From Dehalococcoidia bacterium (GTDB taxonomy: Bacteria > Chloroflexota > Dehalococcoidia > UBA6926): DNA of 64,000 bases. How positions within the stretch are numbered: the stretch's first letter is position 1; every line of letters starts with the position of its first letter. Below are positions 5,192 to 59,087 of this stretch, one piece after another. The notes beneath the pieces were generated by a model that had not been told where the DNA came from, did not search any database, and saw only the letters and a list, made by a program, of their open reading frames with translations. A program made the position numbers and the translations under genes. The stretch spans positions 58,670 to 122,669 of the forward strand of contig VXMO01000043.1 of NCBI GenBank assembly GCA_009841045.1, given 5' to 3'.

Positions 5192-7483
5192 ATGACAACC
5201 GGACGAAAGAAGACGACGACCACGCGCAAGACAAAGAAGGCCGCTGCATCAAGCACTGGCCGCGCAAATGGTCGCTCGTCAACGGCCCGGAGAACGAGCG
5301 CAGCATCCCGGTCTACTGTGGTTCCCGGCGCTGATGTCGTCATCGTTGAGTCTCCCGCAAAGGCCCGAACACTCTCTCGCATCCTCGGCAACCGCTACAA
5401 CGTCCTTGCCTCAATCGGCCACGTCCGCGATCTCCCCAAGAGCAAGATGGCCATCGACGTCGAGAATGATTTTGCGCCGGACTATATCGTGCCCCGTGAC
5501 AAGTCCGCTGTCGTTAAGGAAATAAAGGCCGCAACGAACGCCGCGGGCACCGTCTACCTCGCAACAGACCCCGACCGTGAAGGCGAGGCCATCTCATGGC
5601 ACCTGATGGAGGCCGCCGGCATCCCGGAAGATCGGATGCGCCGCGTCGTCTTTCATGAGGTAACGGAGAACGCCGTCCGCCGCGCCTTTGACGAGCCACG
5701 CGGCATCGACGTCGATCTCGTCAACGCCTATCAGGCCAGACGCGTCCTTGACCGCCTCGTCGGATACCGCCTCAGCCCCGTCCTCTGGAGCAAGGTGCGC
5801 AAGGGGCTGTCGGCTGGCCGCGTCCAATCCGCCGCCCTCCGCCTCGTCGTTGAGCGCGAAGCTGAAATCGACGCGTTCGTTCCTCAAGAGTACTGGGAAA
5901 TCGACGCCGATCTCCTCACGCAGGCCACACAGGCAGAAGAATTCTCGGCGCGATACCGCTCAGAGTTGGGCGCAAGCCGGCAAGCCACCATCCCGAATGA
6001 GGAGACGACCAACAGGATTCTGACAGACCTCCGCGCGAGTTCCTATCAGGTCGCGTCCGTCCGCCGCCGTGAGACAACGCGTCGTCCCGGCCCGCCATTC
6101 ATCACCTCCACGCTCCAGCAGGAGGCATTTCGCAAACTGCGGTTCACCGCCCGCCGGACCATGACCGTCGCCCAGCAGCTCTATGAAGGCCTGCCCATCG
6201 GCAATGAAGGCCCCATCGGACTCATCACGTACATGCGGACCGACTCAACCAACATGGCAAATGAGGCCGTGCAAGAAGCGCGAGCCGTCATCGGCAACCG
6301 CTACGGCAAGGACCATGTCCCCGCCTCTCCCCGCTCCTTCTCGCGTCGCGTCAAGGGAGCGCAGGAGGCCCATGAGGCCATCCGACCCACATCCTTCATG
6401 CGTGACCCTGAGTCGCTGCGAAACTCTCTGAACCGCGAGCAATTCAACCTCTACCAGCTCATCTGGCAGCGCGCCCTCGCGTCCCAGATGGCCGACGCGA
6501 AGTTCGACCAGACTACGGTGGACATCACAGCATCCGGCGCGCCTTCCGGCGTCAGCCACACCCTTCGCGTCACTGGCTCAATCATGACCTTTGCGGGCTA
6601 CCTCGCAGTCTATAGAGAGGGGATCGATGAGCCGGACATCGACTCTGATGAAGGGCGTGTCCTGCCTGATCTGCGTGAGGGACAGCCAGTCGACCTCCGA
6701 AACGTCGCGGGAACGCAGCGCTTCACACAACCCCCGCCCCGCTTTACGGAAGCCACGTTGATTAGGGCTCTGGAAGAGCGAGGCATCGGACGCCCCAGCA
6801 CCTACGCCGCCATCCTCAGCACAATCCAGGACCGCGGCTATGTTGACAAGGCGGACAACCGCTTTCGACCTCTCAAACTCGGTACGGCGGTGTCCGGTCT
6901 CCTCTCCGAGTATTTCCCACAGGTGTCCAGCCTGGATTTCACCTCGCGCATTGAGGAGGAGCTGGACGACGTTGCGCGTGGCGAGCGTGAGTGGGTGCCC
7001 GTCTTGCGTGATTTCTACGGGCCGTTCAACGAACGCATCGACACCGCGCAGGAAAAGATTGAGCGCGTCAGCAACATTGACGAAGAGACAGACGAAGTCT
7101 GCCCGGAGTGCGACGCGAACATGGTCATCAAGCGCGGCCGCTACGGTCCGTTCCTCTCCTGCTCGCGGTTCCCGGAATGTCGCGGCATGAAGCGCATCCA
7201 GAAGGGCACCGGCGCCAACTGCCCCGAGTGCGGCGGCGAACTCGTCCAGCGATCATCCCGCAAGTCCCGACGCCCCTTCTACGGCTGCTCCAACTATCCC
7301 AACTGCAACTTCCTCACCAACCAGGAGCCGCTCCCACAGCCCTGCCCTGACTGCGGCGGCCTCGTCGTTGCCACCAGCCGAACCGATGCCGCATGCAATG
7401 ACAAGGAATGCGGCTGGCAAGGCTCCCGCGAGGAACTCACTGCCGAGCAGCCACAACCGGAACCTCAACTCGTCGAAGTCTAG
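5192..7483 (+). CDS. topA: DNA topoisomerase I
   Basis: Toprim and topo IA domains (VIVESPAKARTL...YLATDPDREGEAISWHL...). Three C-terminal C4 zinc ribbons. Lys/Arg-rich N-terminal extension. RBS AAAGAGG lies 9 nt upstream. Confidence 0.95.
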   Translation: MTTGRKKTTTTRKTKKAAASSTGRANGRSSTARRTSAASRSTVVPGADVVIVESPAKARTLSRILGNRYNVLASIGHVRDLPKSKMAIDVENDFAPDYIVPRDKSAVVKEIKAATNAAGTVYLATDPDREGEAISWHLMEAAGIPEDRMRRVVFHEVTENAVRRAFDEPRGIDVDLVNAYQARRVLDRLVGYRLSPVLWSKVRKGLSAGRVQSAALRLVVEREAEIDAFVPQEYWEIDADLLTQATQAEEFSARYRSELGASRQATIPNEETTNRILTDLRASSYQVASVRRRETTRRPGPPFITSTLQQEAFRKLRFTARRTMTVAQQLYEGLPIGNEGPIGLITYMRTDSTNMANEAVQEARAVIGNRYGKDHVPASPRSFSRRVKGAQEAHEAIRPTSFMRDPESLRNSLNREQFNLYQLIWQRALASQMADAKFDQTTVDITASGAPSGVSHTLRVTGSIMTFAGYLAVYREGIDEPDIDSDEGRVLPDLREGQPVDLRNVAGTQRFTQPPPRFTEATLIRALEERGIGRPSTYAAILSTIQDRGYVDKADNRFRPLKLGTAVSGLLSEYFPQVSSLDFTSRIEEELDDVARGEREWVPVLRDFYGPFNERIDTAQEKIERVSNIDEETDEVCPECDANMVIKRGRYGPFLSCSRFPECRGMKRIQKGTGANCPECGGELVQRSSRKSRRPFYGCSNYPNCNFLTNQEPLPQPCPDCGGLVVATSRTDAACNDKECGWQGSREELTAEQPQPEPQLVEV

Positions 7484-24130: not shown

Positions 24131-25000
24131 CTACACTGCAAGATCAAATGGCAGATCACTGATGTCACGCAGTCGGTTCCCTGCAACCATGGCTTCCAAC
24201 ATCTCGGACTGATCTGCGAGGCTTGGTTCGGATGCACAGACTTTCCGTAGCTCACCGAGTGCAAAATGATATACGCAGTCCAAATCCCCTGTTCCAAGCG
24301 CTAGAGATGCTATTCGCATCGGCAAGGGTTCTGCAGTGACAGCAACAATGTGGGGCAAATTACCTTTCCGATTGCGAATCAGATTCAGGGCCTCAGTTCG
24401 AGTGTTCTGTGATCGGTCGCTCCGGATTGTCCACTTGCATGAAATGCTGGCATGCAATAAAGGGGTTTCAGGGCTCATGTTTCCCTGTATGAAAGGGGTA
24501 AGCGTGGCCACCTCGTCTTGGGAAAGGAAATCTCCTCCAGAGTCTACTTCTCCCTTAGCAACAGGTTGCCGCGCTACGACGATATCAGGAGTGACTACGT
24601 AGCCATGGCCTAGGGCTGAGGCCAGCGCGTGGTTCTCGTTGACCAAGCTCTCTATCGCCTCAAGGTGGGCGTACTGGACGAAATTGGATATTTTTGTCTG
24701 GCCAACCTTATAAGTCCATTGGCCGGGGCGTAAGTGTGCGAGCGAATCAAATGCAGTTCGGATGAATTCGCAGGTCAGGCCTTCAAATCGTGACCCCGCA
24801 GTCTGTCCAGAGATCTGCTGTGCGCCACGTTGTTGTCGAAGCCCAAGTTCTTCTACAAGGCCGTTTCCAATACGGATGCTCGACTGACTACTGCCATCAG
24901 CGAAGTTGGGGAACCGTCTGTTGTTGCGTACTGAGAACCGCAGAATTTGAGAGCCAACCATGCGGTGGTAATCTCGCCGCATAGACACCAATCTTGTCAT
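24131..25000 (-). CDS. Type II restriction endonuclease, NgoMIV/Cfr10I-like
   Basis: Immediately downstream of the methyltransferase in the same operon, inside a low-GC island. Atypical active-site arrangement: PD139 (TPDIVV), S-C-K189 (HASISCKWTIRSDR), E203. By recollection this matches the Cfr10I/NgoMIV/Bse634I variant of the PD-(D/E)XK fold. Confidence 0.6.
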   Translation of the reverse strand: MTRLVSMRRDYHRMVGSQILRFSVRNNRRFPNFADGSSQSSIRIGNGLVEELGLRQQRGAQQISGQTAGSRFEGLTCEFIRTAFDSLAHLRPGQWTYKVGQTKISNFVQYAHLEAIESLVNENHALASALGHGYVVTPDIVVARQPVAKGEVDSGGDFLSQDEVATLTPFIQGNMSPETPLLHASISCKWTIRSDRSQNTRTEALNLIRNRKGNLPHIVAVTAEPLPMRIASLALGTGDLDCVYHFALGELRKVCASEPSLADQSEMLEAMVAGNRLRDISDLPFDLAV

Positions 25001-25011
25001 TTCGCTACGGC

Positions 25012-25902
25012 CTATCCACTCCTGACTAAGCGAGCAAGCGTCGAAGTTTCGAGCCGACTCTGTGCCAACTCAACATAGTCGGGATTAATTTCCATCAGGA
25101 TTGCACTTCGGTCTAGTTCTGCCGCCGCAACACCGGTAGTTCCAGAACCGGCAAATGGGTCGAGTATTATATCCCCAGGTCGACTACCCAGCAGAATGCA
25201 ACGCTTCGCGAGTTCTCTCGGAAACGCGGCAGGGTGTCCTCCTGACGTAGTGTCGGGACCAAGAATCCAATAGTTTCTAAGGTTGGCTCCACTCTCCTCA
25301 CGAAATCCACTGTTGTCGTAGTAGTAATGAGCTGACTTCGCAAAGAGGAATACATCCTCAGTGGCATTTGACGGTCGGTTCTTCACGCTCTCTGGCATAG
25401 GTGCCCTCTTCACCCACGTAATTCTGGATCGCAGTATCCAGCCATCTTCTTGAAGGGCAAAGGCTACACGCCATGGAATCCCCATCAGGTCTCTGTCTTT
25501 CAATCCCCATGTGGAGGGCACTCGCAAGTTTCTTTTCTGGATATCTTTCTTAGTATTGGCCACCTGAGCGTTAGGACCGTGCCGCCCAACGCCTCCGTTA
25601 CGTGCATATCCGTCACCGATGTTGAGCCAGAGAGTTCCGTCATCAGACAAGGCGCGCCGAACTTTTCGAAAAAGATGAACGAGATCGTCCACGTACTGTT
25701 GAGGAGAGCTTTCAGCTCCGAATTGCTCGTCGTGCCCGTAGTCCCTTAGTCCCCAGTAAGGTGGGGACGTAACACAGGATTGAACGGATGCGGGTGCCAA
25801 ATCGTCAAGCAAGTGTTGGGCGTCGCCAAGGAGAATCTCCACCGTCTTCGGTACAGGGAGGCGACCTGCTTTGAGGTCATCCCTAATCATCTCTTTCCCC
25901 AC
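25012..25902 (-). CDS. DNA amino-methyltransferase (N4-cytosine or N6-adenine), beta class
   Basis: Motif IV TSPPYW near the N-terminus and motif I LDPFAGSGTTGVAA near the C-terminus (beta-class order). An SPPY motif favours m4C-type enzymes. Confidence 0.85.
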   Translation of the reverse strand: MGKEMIRDDLKAGRLPVPKTVEILLGDAQHLLDDLAPASVQSCVTSPPYWGLRDYGHDEQFGAESSPQQYVDDLVHLFRKVRRALSDDGTLWLNIGDGYARNGGVGRHGPNAQVANTKKDIQKRNLRVPSTWGLKDRDLMGIPWRVAFALQEDGWILRSRITWVKRAPMPESVKNRPSNATEDVFLFAKSAHYYYDNSGFREESGANLRNYWILGPDTTSGGHPAAFPRELAKRCILLGSRPGDIILDPFAGSGTTGVAAAELDRSAILMEINPDYVELAQSRLETSTLARLVRSG

Positions 25903-37632: not shown

Positions 37633-38847
37633 TCAGCGAAGCGAATCCTCCGCAGCCCGCCGCACGATGTCATAGACACGACTCAGCGGCACGGATGACT
37701 GTTTAGCTAATTGACGACAGTCTTCATATTCAGGAGAAATGCCGATTATCTCCCCTCCTTCAACAAGTCGCTTAATCTTGACGCTCGCCGGACCGAGCGG
37801 AGTTTGAACGATGACCGACTCTCTGACCGCCTCATAACGTGTCATGGGGGTGACGCGAACCCCAAGCGTGGTTGTTTCTCGGAGTAGCTCGCGGACGATT
37901 GCATCCTTCACAGATTCCGGCGCGATTGCAGACACGATTACGCCGGGGCGGCCCTTCTTCATCTGGACATTCTCAAGCCACACATCTCGCGCTCCCGTGG
38001 CCATTAGACGTTCACGAACATAGTCATAGACTTCAGGGTTCATATCGTCGATGGTCGTTTCAATCATGGCCATCGCCCGAGTTTGCGTAGGTTCAGCGGC
38101 CGCCTCTCCAACGACCAAAGTGACGATGTTTGCCCTGCCTTTCGGGTCTTTCGTGCCTGCGCCGTAGCCGACGGCGTCAACCGTGTTCATTACAGGGGGA
38201 GGGTCAAAGGAGGCAAGCGTTGTAACAATTGCCGCGCCGGTAGGAGTTACCAATTCGCCCGTTTGCTGACCTTCGGCATTCGCGGGCGGCGGCAGTGCGG
38301 GTGCTCCAGCCAGTCGCATGATTTCCAGCGCGCCGGGGGCCGGTACAGGCAGCGTTCCGTGCTGAGTCGTCACGCGGCCGGTTGCCAACGGGAGGCCGGT
38401 GGAATAAAGAGTTTCAATACCTAATTCACCCAGGCCAACGAGCGTTCCAACAATGTCAACAAGTGTATCGGCTGATCCGAGTTCCGCGAGTTCTACAGAC
38501 TCAGCGCTGCCGCCGTGGACACGTGCTTCCGCCTCACCAATACGGCGCAGGATGGCAATTGCTCGTTGAATAACACTTGCCGGGAGATTGGCTTTCTCAA
38601 CCCGATCAATCAGATCTCTCAGCGATGTATGGCCGTGTTCAGCGGTATCGCCACCCTGCACAGCGATGTGTGTTGCGCGGATTCCAGCCCGCGAAGTCTC
38701 CACTGGCGTAAGCCGAATCGGCTCGTCCGGAAAGACGCAATCAATCGCTTCATTCATCGCGTCCATGGGAGCGCCGGCATCCACAAGCGCACCCAGAAGC
38801 ATGTCACCGCTGACGCCGTTCGCGCATTGCAGCCACGCGATTCGCAT
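37633..38847 (-). CDS. larC: LarC-like nickel-insertion protein (DUF111) for the nickel-pincer (NPN) cofactor
   Basis: MRIAWLQCANGVSGDMLLGALVDAG N-terminus. Both DUF111 domains are present. Confidence 0.75.
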   Translation of the reverse strand: MRIAWLQCANGVSGDMLLGALVDAGAPMDAMNEAIDCVFPDEPIRLTPVETSRAGIRATHIAVQGGDTAEHGHTSLRDLIDRVEKANLPASVIQRAIAILRRIGEAEARVHGGSAESVELAELGSADTLVDIVGTLVGLGELGIETLYSTGLPLATGRVTTQHGTLPVPAPGALEIMRLAGAPALPPPANAEGQQTGELVTPTGAAIVTTLASFDPPPVMNTVDAVGYGAGTKDPKGRANIVTLVVGEAAAEPTQTRAMAMIETTIDDMNPEVYDYVRERLMATGARDVWLENVQMKKGRPGVIVSAIAPESVKDAIVRELLRETTTLGVRVTPMTRYEAVRESVIVQTPLGPASVKIKRLVEGGEIIGISPEYEDCRQLAKQSSVPLSRVYDIVRRAAEDSLR

Positions 38848-38855
38848 GTGGCGTC

Positions 38856-39737
38856 CTACCCGCTCCGTTTGATCAATTCCGCCGAGCCGCTCTGGCTTGA
38901 GGAGATTGCAGCCTTTCGTGTGTTTAGGCTGCCGGTCTTGTATCCGGAAAGATCCAGTGTCACAAAGAGGTAGCCCAGATCACGAATGTGGTTGATCAAG
39001 TCCTCGCGCAGGTCCTCAGCAATCAGGCGGTGCATATCCTCGGGCGGGACTTCAATCCTGGCAATAGCACCGTGATGACGCACACGAACATGCCTGAAGT
39101 CGTGTTCATGAAGATATTTCTCCGCGCGGGCAATCTTGTCCAGAAGCTCGAATGAGACGGGCGTGCCCAATGGAATACGGGAGGCAAGGCACGACTCAGC
39201 AGGCTTATCCCAGTTAGGCAGACCTCGCTCACGAGCCAATTGGCGTACCTCGCCCTTGCTGAGGCCGACCTCTACAAATGGGCTGCGAACACCTTGCTCG
39301 TCCTTTGCCTTAAGTCCCGGGCGCACATCTCCCAGGTCATCGGTGAGAGTACCGTCAAGCACCCACGGAATCCCGCGCTCCTCGGCAATCGTACGCAACT
39401 GCGAGAATAAGTCGACGCGACAGAAATAACAGCGACGACCGTCGTTGGCCGCAAAGCCCTCCATATCCAGTTGGTCGGTGTAGAGAAACTCGTGGCGAGC
39501 ATTCAGGAATGCGGCAATGTCCCGCGCGTCTTCGGCCTCGGAATCAGCGAACGTTGGCGAGAGAGCGGTTACCGCAAGGGCATCATGCCCCAGAACATCA
39601 ACCGACTCGGCGAGAAGGAGGCTGGAATCAACCCCTCCCGAAAACGAAACGACAATTGAACCCATCTCTCGCAACAGAGAGCGCAGTCTCTCCCGTTTTT
39701 CTGCAATCTCAGGAGTCACAGCGAAATTGGCGTTCAT
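38856..39737 (-). CDS. larE: LarE-like PP-loop ATP pyrophosphatase (sacrificial sulfur insertase family)
   Basis: PP-loop SFSGGVDSS and C-terminal Cys-containing region. Stop overlaps the radA start. Confidence 0.75.
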   Translation of the reverse strand: MNANFAVTPEIAEKRERLRSLLREMGSIVVSFSGGVDSSLLLAESVDVLGHDALAVTALSPTFADSEAEDARDIAAFLNARHEFLYTDQLDMEGFAANDGRRCYFCRVDLFSQLRTIAEERGIPWVLDGTLTDDLGDVRPGLKAKDEQGVRSPFVEVGLSKGEVRQLARERGLPNWDKPAESCLASRIPLGTPVSFELLDKIARAEKYLHEHDFRHVRVRHHGAIARIEVPPEDMHRLIAEDLREDLINHIRDLGYLFVTLDLSGYKTGSLNTRKAAISSSQSGSAELIKRSG

Positions 39738-48981: not shown

Positions 48982-49446
48982 TTAGCCGGAGAGGCCCCTG
49001 ACAGCTTCCAGTGCTTCATTCGCGTGACGCTCCATGTCACCGGGATCATCGATGATATGACGGAGGATGCCCTCCTTGTCGATGACGTAGGTGACGCGGC
49101 GGATCATACTGCGCTCTTCATTCCACGCCCCGAGCGTCTTGGCCGCCTCATGGCTTGGATAACCGCTAACGAGCCTGTAGCTCAGACCACAATGCTCCGC
49201 AAACGCTGCCTGGCTCGGAATCAAATCGACGCTTGAACCCCAGACCTGGGTGTTGAGCTTTCGGAATTCCTCGTGCAAACGCTCGAATTCCCTCAGCTCA
49301 CGCTCTCAACCACCTGTAAATGCGGCGGCGTAAAACGCGATGACAAGGTTCTCCTCACCCTTGAGGTCTGCGGTACTGATCGTCTCTCGAAATCCGGATG
49401 TAAAAGTCAGATCCGGCAGTGGCTGTCCGATTTCAGGCATGGTCAT
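48982..49446 (-). CDS. Bcp/PrxQ-type peroxiredoxin with in-frame UGA (putative selenocysteine) at the peroxidatic position
   Basis: 155-codon frame MTMPEIGQPLPDLTFTSGFRETISTADLKGEENLVIAFYAAAFTGG[UGA]ERELREF...GYPSHEAAKTLGAW...VTYVIDKEGILRHIIDD aligns end to end with E. coli Bcp. The UGA (49306-49308) falls on Bcp Cys45. A 30-nt hairpin starts 13 nt 3' of the UGA. ATG at 49446 has a GGGGGA RBS. Confidence 0.6.
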
Positions 49447-49524
49447 GGTCTGTTCAATCCCCCGTTCGTCGCGGCTAATTCACTTGTGCCGCGCCATCAT
49501 CGTAGCGCGTTGATGTGCTGTCTG

Positions 49525-50004
49525 TCAGCGCAGGACGCCCCGTCTCTCCTTGGGTGCGTGGCAATACCACACCCGACCCGCAAGAGCATCGCGTGTGACC
49601 ACGCCAAATGCGCGACTGTCTCTGCTGTCACCGCGATTGTCGCCGAGCAGAACAAAATCATCCTCCCCGGTTGTCCACTCCGCGCCATCGCCGGAATTCG
49701 GCCTCGACGGAGCGCGTGAGACATACGACTCCGGCAGCGGCTGACCGTTCACGTAAATCGCTCCGTCTACCATTGCGATTTGCTCATTTGGCAGACCGCA
49801 AACCCGTTTAATGGATACCCCTCCGGATTCCGGTTCCCTGAATGCCACAACGTCACCCCTTTGCGGCACTCCACCGGGGAAACGCCGAGACACCAGAACC
49901 ATGTCGCCCTCCAGCAGATATGGTTCCATGCTATGGCCGACCACGCGGAACCGGAGGGAGCTGAACAGATCCAGCAGGCGTGGAGGATGCAGCCACCAGG
50001 GCAT
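49525..50004 (-). CDS. sodX: S26-family signal-peptidase-like protease, probable Ni-SOD maturation peptidase SodX
   Basis: S26 catalytic Ser/Lys motifs (VVGHSMEPYL, GDNRGDSRDSR), no convincing N-terminal TM anchor, divergently adjacent to sodN. Confidence 0.6.
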   Translation of the reverse strand: MPWWLHPPRLLDLFSSLRFRVVGHSMEPYLLEGDMVLVSRRFPGGVPQRGDVVAFREPESGGVSIKRVCGLPNEQIAMVDGAIYVNGQPLPESYVSRAPSRPNSGDGAEWTTGEDDFVLLGDNRGDSRDSRAFGVVTRDALAGRVWYCHAPKERRGVLR

Positions 50005-50123
50005 CAGAGGCGCCCTGCAATGCCAGCGGCATTCCTTGCCCTTTGAGTGGGGGCTACCGTACAATCTTTCACGTTTGAATCCGCTTAAGCCAACTTGAAA
50101 ACTGGGGACGATAGGAGGAAGAA

Positions 50124-50618
50124 ATGTCCGCACTCAGTATAGCCCTGCGAGCGATTGAAAGGTTCTCACCCGCCAAGCCGGCGAACGCGCACTGCGATAT
50201 CCCATGCGGTATCTATGATCCGCACGCGGCCCAAATTGCGGCGCATACGGTCGTGCGAATGGTGAACTTGATTGAGGATCTGGGCGAGGTCTCAGACGCC
50301 GAGTCGCGCAACAAACTCATACGCTACATCGCCGTCAAGGAAGAGCACGCTGAGCTCGCCAAGAAGGAACTCCGCATCCTGTGGGGTGACTATTTCCGCC
50401 CCGAGCACCTGGAGCAGCATCCGAACCTGCACAACCTGTTCTTCACTGCCATGAAGCAGGGCTCCGCCGCGCGCCAGAGCGTGAGCATGGAGAACGCGCA
50501 GGCTTTGGTAGCAACGGTGCAGGAAATCGCCGAGATTTTCTGGGCCACCAAGGGTGCGGAGACATCCCGACAGCCGTCTCGTCAGACCTCCGGCGGGGAG
50601 ATCGTCTATCCCGCGTAG
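50124..50618 (+). CDS. sodN: Nickel-containing superoxide dismutase precursor
   Basis: Ni-hook motif HCDIPCGIYDP preceded by a 22-aa N-terminal propeptide (MSALSIALRAIERFSPAKPANA). Four-helix bundle remainder (...ELAKKELRILWGDYF...). Confidence 0.9.
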   Translation: MSALSIALRAIERFSPAKPANAHCDIPCGIYDPHAAQIAAHTVVRMVNLIEDLGEVSDAESRNKLIRYIAVKEEHAELAKKELRILWGDYFRPEHLEQHPNLHNLFFTAMKQGSAARQSVSMENAQALVATVQEIAEIFWATKGAETSRQPSRQTSGGEIVYPA

Positions 50619-50637: not shown

Positions 50638-51099
50638 TCACGGATACCCAATATCCCGATCAAAGGACGGCTCTGAATTAACCTGCCCCCCGGCGTTTAG
50701 ATACCATCCGTAGTTCCCGCTGGGCGCGTTCGTCGCGCCCACGTTGAGCGTGGTTTCGGCGGATGTGATCGCGGCCGTGGATTCCAGCCCGCCGTGCTCC
50801 GAGAGTAGCTCGAAGGCGAGCCAGGAGCAGATTTCCCCTCCGTCAGAGCCGTCGCACTGGTAGCCTGCCGCATTCCCCTCCCGTGGCGCGCCAATCTCGC
50901 CGGAGAGGGTTGGCCACTCTGGTTGGGGAAAGACTCGGCTCTCCTGATAGATAGGAATGGCGTCCTGAAGCAGAGATCGGTCGGCCTCATGAGCGCGTTC
51001 GCCGAGGATGCCGCGGATGGTCGGCGCAAGCAGGATGGCAAGTGCAACCAGAACGATGATGATGACGAGGGCGGATAGTTCCCTGGTGAACCGTCGCAC
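50638..51099 (-). CDS. Hypothetical membrane-anchored protein (N-terminal TM, Gly/Ser/Asn-rich ectodomain)
   Basis: Single N-terminal TM helix (LSALVIIIVLVALAILL). No recognisable domain. Co-directional with the small HTH gene upstream. Confidence 0.3.
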   Translation of the reverse strand: MRRFTRELSALVIIIVLVALAILLAPTIRGILGERAHEADRSLLQDAIPIYQESRVFPQPEWPTLSGEIGAPREGNAAGYQCDGSDGGEICSWLAFELLSEHGGLESTAAITSAETTLNVGATNAPSGNYGWYLNAGGQVNSEPSFDRDIGYP

Positions 51100-51126: not shown

Positions 51127-51357
51127 TCAGGAGGCTTCGCGCTTGATTTCCAGGCTCTCGCCAGGGGCGAGCGCAACGCGCTTGACGGTGAGATTCATCT
51201 TGAGGAGCCAGTACCAGAGAGTCCCCTTGCTGATGCCGAGTTCCTCGGACATGCCCGGCAATCCAAGTTCGTTGTACATTTCAGGCAAAAGCCGCTCAAG
51301 GGGGCGCCCATAGCGCTCCTCAACCTGCTTCATCAACTTGGTTTTTCCGCGTGCCAT
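51127..51357 (-). CDS. Small HTH DNA-binding protein (sigma-70 region-4 / YlxM-like)
   Basis: 76 aa. HTH-like segment MSEELGISKGTLWYWLLKMN. Confidence 0.35.
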   Translation of the reverse strand: MARGKTKLMKQVEERYGRPLERLLPEMYNELGLPGMSEELGISKGTLWYWLLKMNLTVKRVALAPGESLEIKREAS

Positions 51358-51675: not shown

Positions 51676-52698
51676 ATGATTGTCGTAATGCGAAGCGACG
51701 CAACTCAGGAAAACGTGGATGGCGTCGTCGAGAAGATTCAGGAACTTGGCTATCGGGCAGACGTGGAGCCCGGCGAGTTCACCAGTGTCGTTGCCGTCAT
51801 CGGTGACACGACTGCAGGTGGCGATGACGTCCTAAGAATCCTGCCTGGTGTGGATCATGTTGTCCGCATCATGAAACCCTACAAGCATGTGAGCCGCGAT
51901 TTTCGAAAGCGGGACACCGTAATCGATTTACCCAACGGCGTGAAGATCGGGCCAAGCGCGCCTGTGGCCATGATGGTGGGACCGTGTGCGGTGGAGTCCG
52001 AGGAGCAGGTGCGGCAGGTTGCCGAAATGGACAAGAAACTCGGCTTCACTATTCTTCGTGGCGGCGCGTTCAAGCCACGTACCTCGCCCTATACATTCCA
52101 GGGGCTGGGTCTTGAGGGACTGCGCATCCTCAGAAATGTCGCAGATGAATACGGTCTGATGGTCATCACCGAGGTGATGTCTGAGATGGACGTGGAAATG
52201 TGCGAGGAGTATTCGGATATCCTCCAGATTGGTGCTCGCACCATGCACGCATTCCGGTTGCTCAAAACAGTCGGGCAGACGCGCAAGCCGGTCCTGCTGA
52301 AGCGCGGATTCCATGCCACCATCCGTGAGTGGCTCCTGAGCGCCGAGTACATCATCAGTGAGGGCAATTGGAACGTCATCATGTGTGAACGCGGCATCCG
52401 CAGCTTCGACGATGAATTCTCTCGCAACGTCCTTGATCTGACGGCCGTGCAGATTCTCAAGAAGGAGAGCCACCTCCCCGTCGTCGTTGATCCTAGTCAC
52501 GGCACGGGTGAACGTGATCTCGTTATGCCAATGGCAAAGGCTGCCATCGCAGCAGGGGCTGACGGGCTTATTATCGAAGCGCACCCAGACCCCACGACGG
52601 CGCTTTCCGATGGGGCGCAGTCACTGCCAGTGGATTGGCTGCCGGAGTTGCAGAAGCAGGTCCACGGTATTGCCAAGGCAATCGGACGGGAGGTCTAG
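51676..52698 (+). CDS. 3-deoxy-7-phosphoheptulonate (DAHP) synthase, type I-beta, with N-terminal ACT-like regulatory domain
   Basis: N-terminal ~75-aa ferredoxin-like domain followed by a KDO8PS/DAHPS-I-beta TIM barrel (IGPCAVESEEQ..., LRGGAFKPRTSPY, KRG). Architecture resembles the Thermotoga type. Confidence 0.9.
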   Translation: MIVVMRSDATQENVDGVVEKIQELGYRADVEPGEFTSVVAVIGDTTAGGDDVLRILPGVDHVVRIMKPYKHVSRDFRKRDTVIDLPNGVKIGPSAPVAMMVGPCAVESEEQVRQVAEMDKKLGFTILRGGAFKPRTSPYTFQGLGLEGLRILRNVADEYGLMVITEVMSEMDVEMCEEYSDILQIGARTMHAFRLLKTVGQTRKPVLLKRGFHATIREWLLSAEYIISEGNWNVIMCERGIRSFDDEFSRNVLDLTAVQILKKESHLPVVVDPSHGTGERDLVMPMAKAAIAAGADGLIIEAHPDPTTALSDGAQSLPVDWLPELQKQVHGIAKAIGREV

Positions 52699-52704
52699 GG
52701 CAAA

Positions 52705-52742
52705 GGAGTCTCAGCATTCTTCGCTGCGCTTGGAATGACATG
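52705..52742. repeat. S-type palindromic repeat unit, reverse orientation
   Basis: tctcagcattcttcgctgcgcttggaatgacatgg is the reverse complement of the S unit. Confidence 0.45.
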
Positions 52743-52791
52743 GCGCGGGGCATGACGTGAGAAGGCGGTGGTCAGTAGAATGCGTAGCAAC

Positions 52792-52877
52792 GGCAGGATG
52801 GCGGAGTGGACAAACGCACCAGGCTGTAAACTTGGCGCCCTAGGGCTACGGGGGTTCGAATCCCTCTCCTGCCACCA
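52792..52877 (+). tRNA. tRNA-Tyr (anticodon GUA), long variable arm
   Basis: Acceptor GGCAGGA/TCCTGCC; anticodon stem CCAGG/CTTGG with loop CTGTAAA; 14-nt variable arm; T-loop TTCGAAT; CCA encoded. Confidence 0.85.
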
Positions 52878-52914
52878 CTCCGCCCGTACCTCGTAACGCC
52901 TGTGAGGCCGTGTA

Positions 52915-54951
52915 ATGTTGTTTGAGATTTCAGGCGACCTGCTCCAGCGACACCCAACGTATGTTGTAGGCGTCGTATTCGTGCAGAACGCGACCAAGCC
53001 TTCTCCTGAAAACGTCGGCAAACTCCAACGCACGCTGCAAGAGGAAGTACAGACTGTTCCGTGGAAGCTTGGCGGAGCTGGATTGCATGGCCACTCGGCA
53101 ATTACGCGATGGGAGCAGGCGTTTGAGGCAGAAGGAATCAACCCTCGAACCTATGTGCCGTCGGTCGCCGCCCTTGCACAGCGGTGCCTCCGCGGTGACT
53201 ACATTCGTTCAATCAACCCTGCGGCCGATATCGCCAACCTCATCTCCATGAGACACCTCGTGCCGGTCGGCGCGCACGATGTAGATCGACTGCCCGGAGA
53301 TATCACCGTGCGCCTGAGCCGTGAGGGGGACGCGTTCACGGCTTCCACCGCTGACGAGAAGGAACTGCCAATCGGCGAGCCGGTATACGCGACGGGCGAC
53401 GATATTCGGACCCGTCGCTGGGTGTGGCGACAGGCTGAAACAGCCATGACAATGCCGGAGAGCCGCACGATTGTCTTTCCCGTCGATGGGTTCATGGATG
53501 CGACCGCTGACCGCGTAGAGGCGGCGACGCGGGAACTGGCCCTGTTAGCCAAGGCGACACTTGGCGGAGATGTGTCCTACGGCTATGTGAACGCCGACAA
53601 GCCTTCCCTTTCTGGGGATGATGTCTCGCTGACCCAAGTGGATGACATTGAGGCGGCCACTGCCCCGCTGCTTTCTCTGGACTCACCGGATGAAAGCGCT
53701 GAAACATACCCGTCCCCGCCGGCGGATGAGGCACTCGCCGGATGGTCATTGTCAGACCTACTCCGTCGCGGAATTCTGGACAGCGTAATCGTCGAGGAGG
53801 AATTGCAGGAAGCGCTCGACTCTGGACGGCGACTGACCATCTACGAGGGTTTTGACCCCACAAGCACAAGCCTGCATATCGGCCACTATCTTTCCTTGCG
53901 TGTGCTTCGGTGGTTCCAGCTGCAGGGGCACCGCGTGATCATGCTGTTCGGTGACTTCACCGCCCGCATCGGAGACCCCACCGGCCAGTCCGCTGAACGC
54001 TTGCAGCTAACGCAGGATCAGGTAGTCGCCAACGCGCAGACGTGGCGAAATCAGATCTCTCGCGTGCTTGACCTTGGAGGCGACAACCCCATCGAAATCA
54101 AGTGGAACGGAGAGTGGCTGGATAGTCTCACGCTGCGGGACATGATCGAGATTGCCGCAAACGTAACGGTGCAGCAACTCATTGAACGGGACATGTTCCA
54201 GGAACGCCTCTCGCAGCAACGCCCGCTCCACCTGCATGAGACCCTTTACCCGCTGCTGCAGGGCTACGACTCTGTTGCAATGAGTGTGGATGCGGAGCTT
54301 GGCGGCCGGGACCAGATGTTCAATATGATGGTCGGGCGAGACCTCGTGCGGAATTACAACGGCAAGACCAAACACGTGCTGATGACACCCCTCATCCCGG
54401 GCCTTGATGGTCGCAAGATGAGCAAGTCGTATGGGAACACCGTTGATCTCACTGAGAATCCCGTTGATATGTTCTTCAAGCTGACACAGGTCAGTGATGA
54501 ATTGCTGCCGATGTTCATGAGCGTCCTGACGGACACGCCGGACGACGAGATCGACGGGGTTCGCCTCCGCCTGTCAACGGAGTCCAATCTGCAGAACGCC
54601 CGAGAGCGCTTTGCATGGGCCGTCACAGAGCGCCTGCACGGCACCGATGAGGCGCAGCGGGCTCAGAAAGAGTTCACGCGTGTCGTGGATGAAGGCAGCA
54701 TGCGGCAGGACGTGGAGGAGGTCTTCCTGAAGCCTCGGGCAGAGCCTCTGACGATTCTTGACGTTGCGGTTGCGACGGGTCTGGCAACAAGCCGCAGCGA
54801 CGCCCGCCGCCTCATCCAGCAGGGTGGCCTTGAAATCAATGACCAGCGCCATACCGAGCCCACGCTGCAGCTCTCGCCGGAGGACGTGGAGGGTGCAATT
54901 ATCAAGATGGGCAAGCGTGGATTCGTGCGGATGAAGGTGGAGCGAGCATGA
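52915..54951 (+). CDS. tyrS: Tyrosyl-tRNA synthetase with N-terminal B3/4-domain extension (678 aa)
   Basis: Residues ~290-678 are a complete TyrRS (HIGH = HIGH at FDPTSTSLHIGHY; KMSKS = KMSKS; C-terminal S4 domain). Residues ~1-230 align to the PheT B3/4 domain (INPAADIANLISMRHLVPVGAHDVDRLPGDITVRLSREGDAFTA...). A single uninterrupted frame. Confidence 0.85.
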   Translation: MLFEISGDLLQRHPTYVVGVVFVQNATKPSPENVGKLQRTLQEEVQTVPWKLGGAGLHGHSAITRWEQAFEAEGINPRTYVPSVAALAQRCLRGDYIRSINPAADIANLISMRHLVPVGAHDVDRLPGDITVRLSREGDAFTASTADEKELPIGEPVYATGDDIRTRRWVWRQAETAMTMPESRTIVFPVDGFMDATADRVEAATRELALLAKATLGGDVSYGYVNADKPSLSGDDVSLTQVDDIEAATAPLLSLDSPDESAETYPSPPADEALAGWSLSDLLRRGILDSVIVEEELQEALDSGRRLTIYEGFDPTSTSLHIGHYLSLRVLRWFQLQGHRVIMLFGDFTARIGDPTGQSAERLQLTQDQVVANAQTWRNQISRVLDLGGDNPIEIKWNGEWLDSLTLRDMIEIAANVTVQQLIERDMFQERLSQQRPLHLHETLYPLLQGYDSVAMSVDAELGGRDQMFNMMVGRDLVRNYNGKTKHVLMTPLIPGLDGRKMSKSYGNTVDLTENPVDMFFKLTQVSDELLPMFMSVLTDTPDDEIDGVRLRLSTESNLQNARERFAWAVTERLHGTDEAQRAQKEFTRVVDEGSMRQDVEEVFLKPRAEPLTILDVAVATGLATSRSDARRLIQQGGLEINDQRHTEPTLQLSPEDVEGAIIKMGKRGFVRMKVERA

Positions 54952-55829
54952 ACTTCGACAGACCGACTGTGGGATTTCTCCAGCCGGAGGCCACCTTCAC
55001 GCACCTTGCGGCCATTGCCCACTTCGGCCGGGATGCCACTTTCGAACCGATGGAATCAGAGGCAATCTGCCAAGCCGTTCAGCAGGGTGAGATCGAATAC
55101 GGTGTGCTGCCGATTGAGAACCTGCTTGAAGGAACCGTGGGAGCGACGCTGGACTTCGTGACAGCGACAGAGGGTATCAACGTCATTGCTGAAGTCTTCT
55201 TGCCTATTCACCACCACCTCCTGACCAAGACGACACTGGAGCAGGTGACGCGCATCTACTCTCATCCGCAGGCACTTAGCCAATGCAGACGGAGTATCCA
55301 GCGCTTATCTGAGGAGTTGGGGCGTGAAATCGAGGTCATTGAAGAATCCAGCACGGCGCGTGGAGCGCAGATAGCCGCAGCGTCTGAAGACCCCGGGGCC
55401 GCGGGATTTGGGAATGTAGTTTGCGGCATTTTATAGAGTGTGTATGGTGTAAGCGTGGAAGAGGGGGGGGGCGCGGGGCATGAGGCACGGAGGTGTGTGC
55501 TGAGTAAGGACAGATTCCCCGAGACTACGGGTGGGGACAAAACGACAATCCTGTTCGACCTCGAGAATCAACCCGGCGCGTTGGTCAAGGTCCTTAGCCT
55601 GTTCTCATCACGCGGATTGAACGCAACGATGCTGCAGTCGCGGCCATCCCGCCTTGATCCGGGGGCAGGCCTGTGGGAATACACCTTCATCGCGGAGTAT
55701 TTGGGACACATACGTGACCAAGGCTTGGCGGAGGCTTACGCTGAAGTTGAGGCCGGGCTGGGCACACTCTGTAAGCGAATCCGTTTGTTGGGTTCATACC
55801 CACGGAGTTCTATGGGTGAGAACGACTAA
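54948..55829 (+). pseudogene. pheA: Prephenate dehydratase (PDT + ACT domains) interrupted by one in-frame TAG
   Basis: PDT domain at 54948-55433 and ACT domain at 55440-55829 are in the same frame, separated only by TAG at 55434-55436. Conservation continues across the stop (..CGIL*SVYGVSV..ARRCVLS.. corresponds to ..ELYGL.IL....NxTRFxVLS). A G10 homopolymer lies 25 nt downstream. Confidence 0.7.
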
Positions 55830-57367: not shown

Positions 57368-58435
57368 TCAGGTTGACAACACCCGCGCTAACTCGTCGCG
57401 GGCAAACCGCGGAACATTAACTCCCTGCGGGCGCGGCACAGCGAGACCGATCTGCGTCGCGCGTATGGACGCGCCCTCAAGGGCCGCGATAACGGCAGTT
57501 GCATCGTCGGGAGCAACTGCAAGTAACAGCCCACCCGCAGCAATCAACCCAAGCGGGTCAACACTAAGCGCCCTGCAAATCTCTGTCGCCTCAGGCGAGG
57601 TCATGGCCTCCATGGCATCCGCATCGATATCCAGTCCAACATCTGATGCGTCCGCCATCTCGTGTAGCGCCGTTGCAATGCCACCCTCAGTTGGATCATG
57701 CATGGCGTGGATGGGAACTGTCTTAAGAGCGATATGGGAATCATGGACAACACTGATACCGGGATCATGCAGAAAATCGGCTCCGTGCCGAATGGTCTCA
57801 TCGGAAACCCCAGCGGCGCGCAGCCGATCAGCAACTTCAATTGCCAGGATGGCCGTGCCCTCGATGCCGACACCCTTGGAGAGGACAATCGCATCGCCCT
57901 CCTGAACACCGGATGTTGGCGTTTGTTTGCCTCTAGCAACTTCGCCGATCATCGTGCCAATGGCGATTGGGCGGTCAATGCCGTACGTCACCTCAGTGTG
58001 CCCGCCCACAAGCGTCACCCCGATCTCCGCGCAGGCGTCCAACGTCTGCCGCATGATGTCTTTGGCAAGCTGCGGAGGCGACCCATCCGGCAGGATGACA
58101 GTCATTACCATCCATCTCGGCGTCCCGCCAGTGGCGGCGATATCGTTGGCGTTAACGTGCACTGCGTACCATCCCAGCTGTTCCGCGGCGAAAGTGATGG
58201 GATCTGAGCTAACGACGAGATAGTTCTCCCCGCCGCTATCGATCAGCGCCGCGTCCTCCCCCATGCGCGGCCCAAGTATGACGCTGGGGTCCCCGATATT
58301 GGCCTGCTCAAGCAGTTGGCCAAGGAGATCAGGCGGAAGCTTGCCAACACGAAGAGGGCCGTTCTGTGCGTCTGTCATAAAGCCATTATCCCTGCTTGGG
58401 ATGCATCGAGGAGCGCTGGATGCCCTAAGTTTCAT
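57368..58435 (-). CDS. AIR-synthase-related (PurM-like) protein, HypE/ThiL-like
   Basis: PurM N-terminal (GEDAALID...VVSSDPITF...NDIAATGGTP) and C-terminal domains. Lacks the SelD Cys/Sec motif. Confidence 0.5.
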   Translation of the reverse strand: MKLRASSAPRCIPSRDNGFMTDAQNGPLRVGKLPPDLLGQLLEQANIGDPSVILGPRMGEDAALIDSGGENYLVVSSDPITFAAEQLGWYAVHVNANDIAATGGTPRWMVMTVILPDGSPPQLAKDIMRQTLDACAEIGVTLVGGHTEVTYGIDRPIAIGTMIGEVARGKQTPTSGVQEGDAIVLSKGVGIEGTAILAIEVADRLRAAGVSDETIRHGADFLHDPGISVVHDSHIALKTVPIHAMHDPTEGGIATALHEMADASDVGLDIDADAMEAMTSPEATEICRALSVDPLGLIAAGGLLLAVAPDDATAVIAALEGASIRATQIGLAVPRPQGVNVPRFARDELARVLST

Positions 58436-59087
58436 GGGCAAATGTCAGCGCGTAAACGTTGTTCGCGCCCCCATGCCGTAGCGCCCTGGCTGCTTCAGTG
58501 AGTGTCGCGCCTGTCGTCAAAACATCGTCGATGAGGAGGACATTGGCGCGTCGGATTTGTGCTGGATTTGGGACATGGAACGCGCCGCGCACATTGGCAG
58601 CACGTTCGGCTGCACTCATGGCTCGCGCTTGAACACCCGTCTCCCGCAGTCGGACAAGGGCTGAGATAGCTACGAGACCCGTCATCTGTGAGAGTTCCCG
58701 CGCCAGGAGTCCCGACTGGTCAAATCCCCGTTCCCTAAGCCGCGCGGGATGAACAGGAACGTGAACAATTACGTCAGTGGCCGGACCCCATTCGTGCAGC
58801 ACATCCCCCATCTCCAGTGCAAGAACCGGAGCGAGCGACCTGAGACCGTTGTACTTATAGTGTCGAACAATCTCACGGACGTTGCCTTCATACGGCCAGA
58901 CCGCCCGCGCCGCCCGGATACCGTTTAGCTTTGGAATGGCATCTGGATCAAGGCGAGGCGGCAACGAACGACGGCATGACTCGCAGACAAGATCGCCCTC
59001 CCGTCCACAAAGTACGCAGCGGGGCGGAAACAGAAGTCGCAGGGCCGAATCGGCAAAGTCGCGTAGTCGCATTCTCACTAATGGCAA
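58425..59087 (-). CDS. comF: ComF family protein (zinc finger + phosphoribosyltransferase domain)
   Basis: CxxC...CxxC N-terminus and PRTase motif VLLIDDVLTTGATL. Confidence 0.8.
   Translation of the reverse strand: MPLVRMRLRDFADSALRLLFPPRCVLCGREGDLVCESCRRSLPPRLDPDAIPKLNGIRAARAVWPYEGNVREIVRHYKYNGLRSLAPVLALEMGDVLHEWGPATDVIVHVPVHPARLRERGFDQSGLLARELSQMTGLVAISALVRLRETGVQARAMSAAERAANVRGAFHVPNPAQIRRANVLLIDDVLTTGATLTEAARALRHGGANNVYALTFAHET

Follow-up and report, generated by a model that had tools for sequence, protein, structure and literature searches.

The 64,000-nt stretch of DNA studied here (hereafter the window; positions 58,670–122,669 of contig VXMO01000043.1, assembly GCA_009841045.1, from a Dehalococcoidia bacterium) contains sodN, predicted to encode the precursor of a nickel superoxide dismutase (NiSOD), and, divergently from it, a gene for a peptidase of family S26. 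Together they form a two-gene NiSOD module, a known and widespread pair, and the identification of this pair in the window is correct but ordinary. Judged from its sequence and surroundings, the peptidase is very probably a SodX-type maturation protease acting on the leader of SodN. Such a role is the best reading of the gene because an S26 gene was found beside sodN in 79 of 82 bacterial and archaeal loci, and because the leader ends in a conserved cleavage-site pattern at positions −3 and −1. The gene pair is already known and has been reported in this lineage; the peptidase is a long-form variant that is mislabelled by annotation pipelines. The coordinates of all features are collected in Table 1.

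The first-pass annotation had described a 164-aa NiSOD precursor with a Ni-hook placed after a 22-residue leader, and both the coordinates and the motifs were found to be present. SodN exceeded the cutoffs of TIGR02753 (159.6 bits; cutoff 90) as well as Pfam Sod_Ni PF09055 (157.1 bits; cutoff 25). Its N-terminus reads MSALSIALRAIERFSPAKPANA and continues directly into HCDIPCGIYDP, the end of the leader being ...PANA. In a comparison with PDB, residues 23–144 aligned to residues 1–116 of the mature Streptomyces NiSOD chain 1Q0D, and residues 1–11 of that chain corresponded to HCDIPCGIYDP. Since mature 1Q0D starts at the His residue aligned with His23, the predicted mature N-terminus of the protein in the window is His23. 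The Ni-hook positions were invariant in 23 SodN homologues, and the hook was identical in almost all of 83 loci.

The same boundary was conspicuous when the leaders of 83 SodN sequences (those of 82 fetched loci and that of the window itself) were compared. Position −1 was Ala in 82 sequences and position −3 was Ala or Val in 80, Pro-(Pro/Ala) was frequent at positions −7/−6, and a leader length of 22 residues was the commonest (35/83). No signal-peptide-like hydrophobic core was seen in the SodN leader when it was read straight off the sequence. Small residues at −3 and −1 are the rule for type I signal peptidases, which belong to family S26, and the pattern in the leaders fits signal-peptidase-type cleavage. 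We infer that the leader is cleavable and would be removed for Ni binding.

The divergent gene had been described as an S26 peptidase without a convincing membrane anchor, and this description held. The protein was recognized by Pfam Peptidase_S26 (104.5 bits) and contains both GHSMEPYL and GDNRGDSRDSR; in an alignment with 29 homologues (A2) Ser25 (GHSMEP), Lys66 (IKRV), Gly70, Pro72, and box E including S130 and R131 were invariant or nearly so. The maximal open reading frame (ORF) covers 49525–50133 on the reverse strand and would give 202 aa from a GTG start, or 159 aa from an internal ATG at 50004. Fifteen homologues with 82–87% identity were 159–160 aa long and began with MPWWLHP or a close variant, and remoter homologues (46–65% identity) were 159–166 aa long. 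Because these lengths and the MPWWLHP-type N-termini agree, 50004 is the best choice of start. The GTG at 50133 was ruled out, as homologues measure 159–162 aa from the MPWW position and the extension would collide with the start of sodN.

No membrane anchor was found in the 159 residues or in the 35 upstream residues of the ORF, the highest 19-residue Kyte-Doolittle mean being 0.91. The first-pass annotation had held that the protein would more likely be the general signal peptidase if it were the only S26 peptidase of the genome and showed an anchor on correction of the start; no anchor emerged, and the hydropathy of the 35 upstream residues ruled out a transmembrane anchor hidden there. In most of the close homologues P0001–P0023 (159–162 aa) the hydropathy maximum was below 1.0 as well, with the highest value (1.31) in the 166-aa P0022. 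The usual LepB anchor is a hydrophobic segment immediately preceding the catalytic Ser, and 20 of 21 more distant matches from the same search (163–276 aa) had a segment reaching 2.0–3.1 at this place. The exception, P0029 (136 aa), begins at the catalytic motif and is seemingly truncated N-terminally. The peptidase of the window consists of a complete, anchor-less S26A catalytic domain.

An AlphaFold2 model of the peptidase (mean pLDDT 83.4, pTM 0.79) gave E. coli LepB and S. aureus SpsB as its best PDB structure matches, with a probability of 1.00 and TM-scores of 0.6–0.67 on the query. By sequence, the nearest solved chains were Gram-positive signal peptidase I catalytic domains (4ME8, 4WVG-J, 4NV4). 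Besides, 1T7D and 1B12 were among the best sequence or structure matches, and Streptococcus SipA (4N31) was among the structural ones.

The sodN loci used for comparison were obtained by scanning one genome per GTDB species with an alignment of 23 SodN proteins; the best 80 loci and two further ones made up the set of 82. The best 80 came from Dehalococcoidia, other Chloroflexota, Elusimicrobia, and bacteria of the candidate phyla radiation, and from many archaeal metagenome-assembled genomes (MAGs), including Thermoplasmata, Thaumarchaeota, Micrarchaeota, Aenigmarchaeota, and a Heimdallarchaeota contig. The closest among them was the Dehalococcoidia sequence OZ241912.1, with 98% identity in SodN. 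Exactly one S26 ORF adjoined sodN in 79 of the 82 loci, within about 500 bp except in L020 and L021 (about 0.9–1.5 kb). Since 79 of 82 independent loci have it, the adjacency is more than chance. When the gene of the window was added and the frameshifted gene of L045 was counted as two pieces, 81 S26 ORFs were available. Among these, the long form was divergent and upstream of sodN in 31 cases and co-directional and downstream in six, and the short form was divergent and upstream in 15 and co-directional and downstream in 29. The maximum hydropathy was below 1.6 in 75 of the 81 ORFs.

Other neighbors of the pair (the peroxiredoxin, a 153-aa membrane protein, a 76-aa protein, 3-deoxy-D-arabino-heptulosonate 7-phosphate (DAHP) synthase, major facilitator superfamily (MFS) transporters, and LplA) recurred in the six closest relatives only, so that the pairing of sodN with S26 is the sole association to have survived deep divergence and inter-domain transfer. 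The archaeal partners of sodN are not their hosts' own signal peptidases, because they are of the bacterial S26A type and score below the archaeal signal peptidase model TIGR02228, which was reached by none of the sodN-adjacent peptidases scored. It seems that sodN and the S26A gene have moved between domains as one unit. That sodN occurs in Chloroflexota, Dehalococcoidia in particular, as well as in archaea has been published already (bioRxiv 10.1101/2021.01.12.426412; PMC8346466); the bioRxiv report nowhere mentions a peptidase, a protease, or maturation.

Two side observations were made in this survey. Three sodN-adjacent S26 proteins of Chloroflexota (L042, 6517–6936; L047, 6521–6937; L059, 6519–6968) are hydrophobic at the N-terminus, where a segment reaches a maximum hydropathy of 1.9–2.2, and may be membrane-tethered SodX variants. 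The archaeal MAG loci with sodN and a bacterial-type S26A gene were L008, L009, L018, L021, L022, L025, L027, L031, L032, L036, L037, L039, L040, L043–L045, L051–L058, and L060–L080; sodN lies near 6001–6510 in most of them, and Marsarchaeota are also represented.

Several points weigh against a SodX-type role. The peptidase fell below the cutoff of the SodX equivalog model TIGR02754 (46.3 versus 63.25 bits) and passed that of the bacterial signal peptidase I model TIGR02227 (113.7 versus 47 bits). Its sequence similarity to anchored LepB-type proteins (up to 85.7 bits) was about the same as that to many other sodN-adjacent peptidases, and a crude neighbor-joining tree (103 columns), biased by a LepB set picked for similarity to the query, did not part SodX-like from LepB-like S26 proteins. 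Three of the 82 loci were without an adjacent S26 gene: L007, with full flanks, and L060 and L076, whose upstream flanks are short. No anchored housekeeping LepB besides this peptidase was shown for the genome, the S26 search having covered the 64-kb window only; there, our own S26 hidden Markov model gave one match against six-frame ORFs of at least 60 aa and thus no second S26 gene. To our knowledge, no cleavage experiment exists for long-form proteins.

The position of the peptidase relative to the curated models was examined by scoring ten further sodN-adjacent peptidases against TIGR02754, TIGR02227, and TIGR02228. Three archaeal-MAG peptidases of about 100 aa, one of them from a Thaumarchaeota MAG, passed TIGR02754 (82.9–87.1 bits), and intermediate ones of 121–133 aa failed it (51.6–62.1 bits). 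Five long peptidases of 149–162 aa (Dehalococcoidia, Thermoproteota, Elusimicrobia, and Thermoplasmata) scored 35.9–50.4 bits with TIGR02754, and four of the five passed TIGR02227. In the long form, boxes D and E are separated by about 40 additional residues (approximately residues 82–118), a segment that splits the TIGR02754 match; in the AlphaFold2 model, part of it forms a beta-hairpin and part a low-confidence loop (residues 101–105), and it is missing from the short forms. Because the box D–E hairpin segment is kept, the curated models score the peptidase as LepB, and because TIGR02227 is passed and TIGR02754 failed, its public name is "signal peptidase I." The closest NCBI homologue, P0001, bears the same name, which bears out the remark in the first-pass annotation that pipelines label sodX as lepB. 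The further statement that the gene matches SodX stood for function and context, given the pairing in the survey and the leader pattern, but not for formal membership. The peptidase is SodX-like by context and formally outside the curated SodX model.

The same scores could be explained if the S26 gene were the general housekeeping signal peptidase I and merely adjoined sodN. Besides the TIGR02227 match, the presence of all signal peptidase I boxes (B to E), the name of the closest homologue, and the identity of the closest solved relatives as Gram-positive signal peptidase I catalytic domains would agree with this. However, in a general signal peptidase the catalytic domain must lie on the trans side of the membrane, and no hydrophobic segment was present in the residues tested; the anchored LepB-type matches were clearly different in hydropathy, and the anchor-less type stands beside sodN in almost all loci of the survey, including those of archaea, which have a different housekeeping subfamily. 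We therefore regard a general signal peptidase as very improbable.

It is just as improbable that the protein has another or a broader substrate, either as a peptidase acting on the downstream peroxiredoxin or as a non-catalytic assembly chaperone like Streptococcus SipA, although the peptidase and peroxiredoxin genes are co-directional and close together in seven genomes and SipA is among the structural matches. The peroxiredoxin has no N-terminal extension to be removed: its AhpC-TSA match starts at residue 6 counted from the ATG at 49446, and at residue 7 of the 46-aa fragment upstream of its in-frame TGA (window 49312–49449). Moreover, of the 82 sodN loci searched, 76 are without it, and the peptidase is still present in nearly all of these. 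Unlike SipA, the protein has kept its catalytic Ser and Lys, and no universally co-located protein other than SodN has a conserved A/V-x-A leader end. Equally remote is the idea that SodN is matured by another protease or autocatalytically next to a decaying or functionless S26 remnant, for although some sodN-bearing cyanobacteria are without sodX (PMC8346466) and three loci of the survey have no adjacent S26 gene, the gene in the window is intact and its length (159–162 aa at 57–87% identity) and catalytic residues are kept across deep divergence, which argues for purifying selection.

A SodX-type protease for SodN thus remains the preferred reading, and the course of maturation can be modelled on studies of Streptomyces and Prochlorococcus that PMC3919588 and PMC8346466 cite. 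In Streptomyces, SodN has SodX as its cognate peptidase, encoded beside sodN (PMC3919588), and a passage of PMC8346466 that cites Eitinger 2004 describes SodX as needed for the activation of NiSOD through cleavage of the preprotein. By analogy, translation of sodN would yield an inactive precursor with a non-secretory leader of 22 residues. The divergently encoded S26A Ser/Lys peptidase, which would be soluble and presumably cytoplasmic, would recognize the Ala-Asn-Ala end of the leader by its small residues at −3 and −1 and cleave the Ala22–His23 bond. The cut would free the amino group of His1, which together with the amide nitrogen of Cys2 and the thiolates of Cys2 and Cys6 would bind Ni to give the active Ni-hook.

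In comparison with the sodN-sodX pairs of Streptomyces coelicolor (SCO5254/SCO5255) and Prochlorococcus marinus MIT9313, the leader in the window likewise ends right before HCD(L/I)PCG(V/I)YDP. The adjoining gene for an S26-family peptidase is also shared, and in the passages concerned of PMC3919588 and PMC8346466 this peptidase is cognate and needed for activation. The window SodN differs from the Streptomyces protein at both ends. It has a conserved C-terminal tail that makes it about 20 residues longer; this tail (residues 145–164; window 50556–50618, forward strand) has the conserved pattern ..RQPSRQ-x-GGE-VYP, extends past the end of the Streptomyces enzyme and past the ends of the Pfam and TIGR models, and has S152, G157, G158, E159, V161, and P163 invariant in 23 Chloroflexota-type homologues. 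Its leader is 22 residues long, and that of Streptomyces SodN is 14.

The peptidase differs from classical SodX in its length of 159 aa, its retained box D–E hairpin, and its failure with TIGR02754. It shares with short SodX proteins of about 90–110 aa the Ser/Lys S26 core, box E, the absence of an anchor, and the place beside sodN, but is set apart from them, with the other long forms, by its sub-cutoff score and the insert of about 40 residues. With LepB, SipS, and SpsB (TIGR02227, PF10502) it has in common the fold, boxes B to E, and, as predicted, the Ala-x-Ala substrate preference, whereas it has no N-terminal transmembrane anchor and is encoded together with a presumably cytoplasmic substrate, the leader of which does not serve for secretion.

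A tentative and on the whole doubtful extension of this comparison is that the anchor-less, LepB-length peptidase found beside sodN in Dehalococcoidia and some archaea is an intermediate on a path from anchored LepB through the soluble long form to short SodX, the anchor having been lost first and the D–E hairpin later, possibly within Chloroflexota, which has been proposed as a source phylum of NiSOD (bioRxiv 10.1101/2021.01.12.426412). As part of the same idea, the peptidase may be co-transcribed with a selenocysteine peroxiredoxin in this clade; if true, this would couple the H2O2 production of the dismutase to H2O2 removal.

The spacer between sodN and the peptidase gene measured 119 bp according to both the ORF list and the raw sequence. 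A consensus scan gave a sigma-70-like match at 50036–50065 (TTGCCC-18-TACAAT), a putative sodN promoter, and a strong Shine-Dalgarno match, AGGAGGA, lies upstream of sodN at 50113–50119. The −10 region and the 5′ untranslated region of sodN are kept in L003–L005. No Rfam match of note to known RNA elements was obtained near the pair.

Table 1. Positions of the NiSOD module and neighboring features in the window.
Feature	Coordinates	Strand	Basis or remark
sodN, NiSOD precursor, 164 aa	50124..50618	+	TIGR02753, Pfam Sod_Ni, alignment with 1Q0D
Leader peptide coding region, 22 codons, MSALSIALRAIERFSPAKPANA	50124..50189	+	predicted cleavage after Ala22
Ni-hook HCDIPCGIYDP, residues 23–33	50190..50222	+	sequence; ligands His1, Cys2, Cys6, plus Tyr9
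Divergent intergenic region sodN/peptidase, 119 bp	50005..50123		promoter and Shine-Dalgarno matches
sodX-like S26A peptidase, 159 aa, long form, anchor-less	49525..50004	-	Pfam/NCBIfam scores, hydropathy, sodN adjacency
Ser25 codon AGC, predicted nucleophile (GHSMEP, box B)	49930..49932	-	column at least 90% conserved, alignment A2
Lys66 codon AAA, predicted general base (SIKRVCGLP, box D)	49807..49809	-	column at least 90% conserved, alignment A2
Box E GDNRGDSRDSR, residues 121–131	49612..49644	-	G121, D122, N123, R124, S127, D129 invariant in A2
AhpC/TSA-family peroxiredoxin, 78 nt downstream of the peptidase gene, same strand	48982..49446	-	outside the conserved module
Candidate SECIS hairpin, AGCU..GGGAAUUCG...CGAAUUCC..AGCU, starting 5 nt 3′ of the TGA	49254..49300	-	folding; suggestive only

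The peroxiredoxin gene contains an in-frame TGA (49306–49308) at the position of the peroxidatic Cys (AFTGG*EREL), with Pfam AhpC-TSA matches on either side of it, and the TGA and the frame are kept in six close relatives (L001–L006; 67–94% identity). The protein is therefore probably a selenocysteine peroxiredoxin. A hairpin resembling a selenocysteine insertion sequence (SECIS) was predicted in all seven orthologues; with a single-sequence z-score of only −1.0, the assignment is suggestive only. No tRNA-Sec was found within the window. A GGGGGA ribosome-binding site belonging to the gene itself and a weak promoter-like match were also noted. The first-pass annotation had joined it with the pair in a three-gene antioxidant cluster. 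A peroxiredoxin gene with an in-frame TGA does adjoin the pair, but this holds for the six closest relatives only, no match having been found in the other 76 loci (L007–L082). Thus, the peroxiredoxin is a lineage-specific neighbor and not part of the conserved module, and it is possibly co-transcribed with the peptidase. This UGA-containing peroxiredoxin is a separate lead of modest interest.

The first-pass annotation had also proposed to check for a Ni-uptake system and a Fur/Nur regulator; in Pfam and NCBIfam scans of about 50 ORFs, neither a Ni transporter nor a Fur/Nur regulator was found in the 64-kb window. The scans gave LarC, LarE, two DHA2-type MFS transporters, and housekeeping genes. 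LarC (TIGR00299, 153.8 bits; LarC2, 131.7 bits) and LarE (TIGR00268, 312.3 bits) are encoded at 37633–39737 on the reverse strand, about 11 kb from sodN, and act in the synthesis of the Ni-pincer nucleotide cofactor. Their presence indicates that the organism handles nickel, and the genome region has, as predicted from these genes, a second nickel-dependent system. A protein of the 5-aminoimidazole ribonucleotide (AIR) synthase family (57368–58441, reverse strand) was considered as SelD and rejected, being below cutoff for HypE (109.5 bits), ThiL (95.9 bits), and SelD (84.1 bits) alike; identity as SelD would bear on the selenoprotein reading of the peroxiredoxin.

Further genes of the window were noted in passing. 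Between sodN and the DAHP synthase gene, two genes on the reverse strand encode a 153-aa protein whose N-terminus bears a hydrophobic, pilin-like segment (50638–51099) and a 76-aa protein with 93–100% identity across six relatives (51127–51357), neither of which matched a Pfam or NCBIfam family. An aromatic amino acid/tyrosine cluster follows at 51676–55436 on the forward strand, comprising a DAHP synthase with an N-terminal ferredoxin-like domain, tRNA-Tyr (52792–52877), a 678-aa tyrosyl-tRNA synthetase with an N-terminal B3_4 fusion, and a short prephenate dehydratase-like ORF. At 24131–25902 on the reverse strand, an NgoMIV-type restriction endonuclease (331 bits) lies beside an N6/N4 DNA methylase, the two forming a type II restriction-modification pair.

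These results matter chiefly for annotation: a long-form S26 protein, very probably the NiSOD maturation protease, is called signal peptidase I by curated models and pipelines, both in this lineage and in numerous MAGs of archaea and Chloroflexota. Surveys of sodX that rely on TIGR02754 would wrongly report sodN without sodX and would over-count lepB. The sodN-sodX pair itself is a textbook arrangement, and its presence points to a Dehalococcoidia organism that meets oxygen stress and uses nickel.

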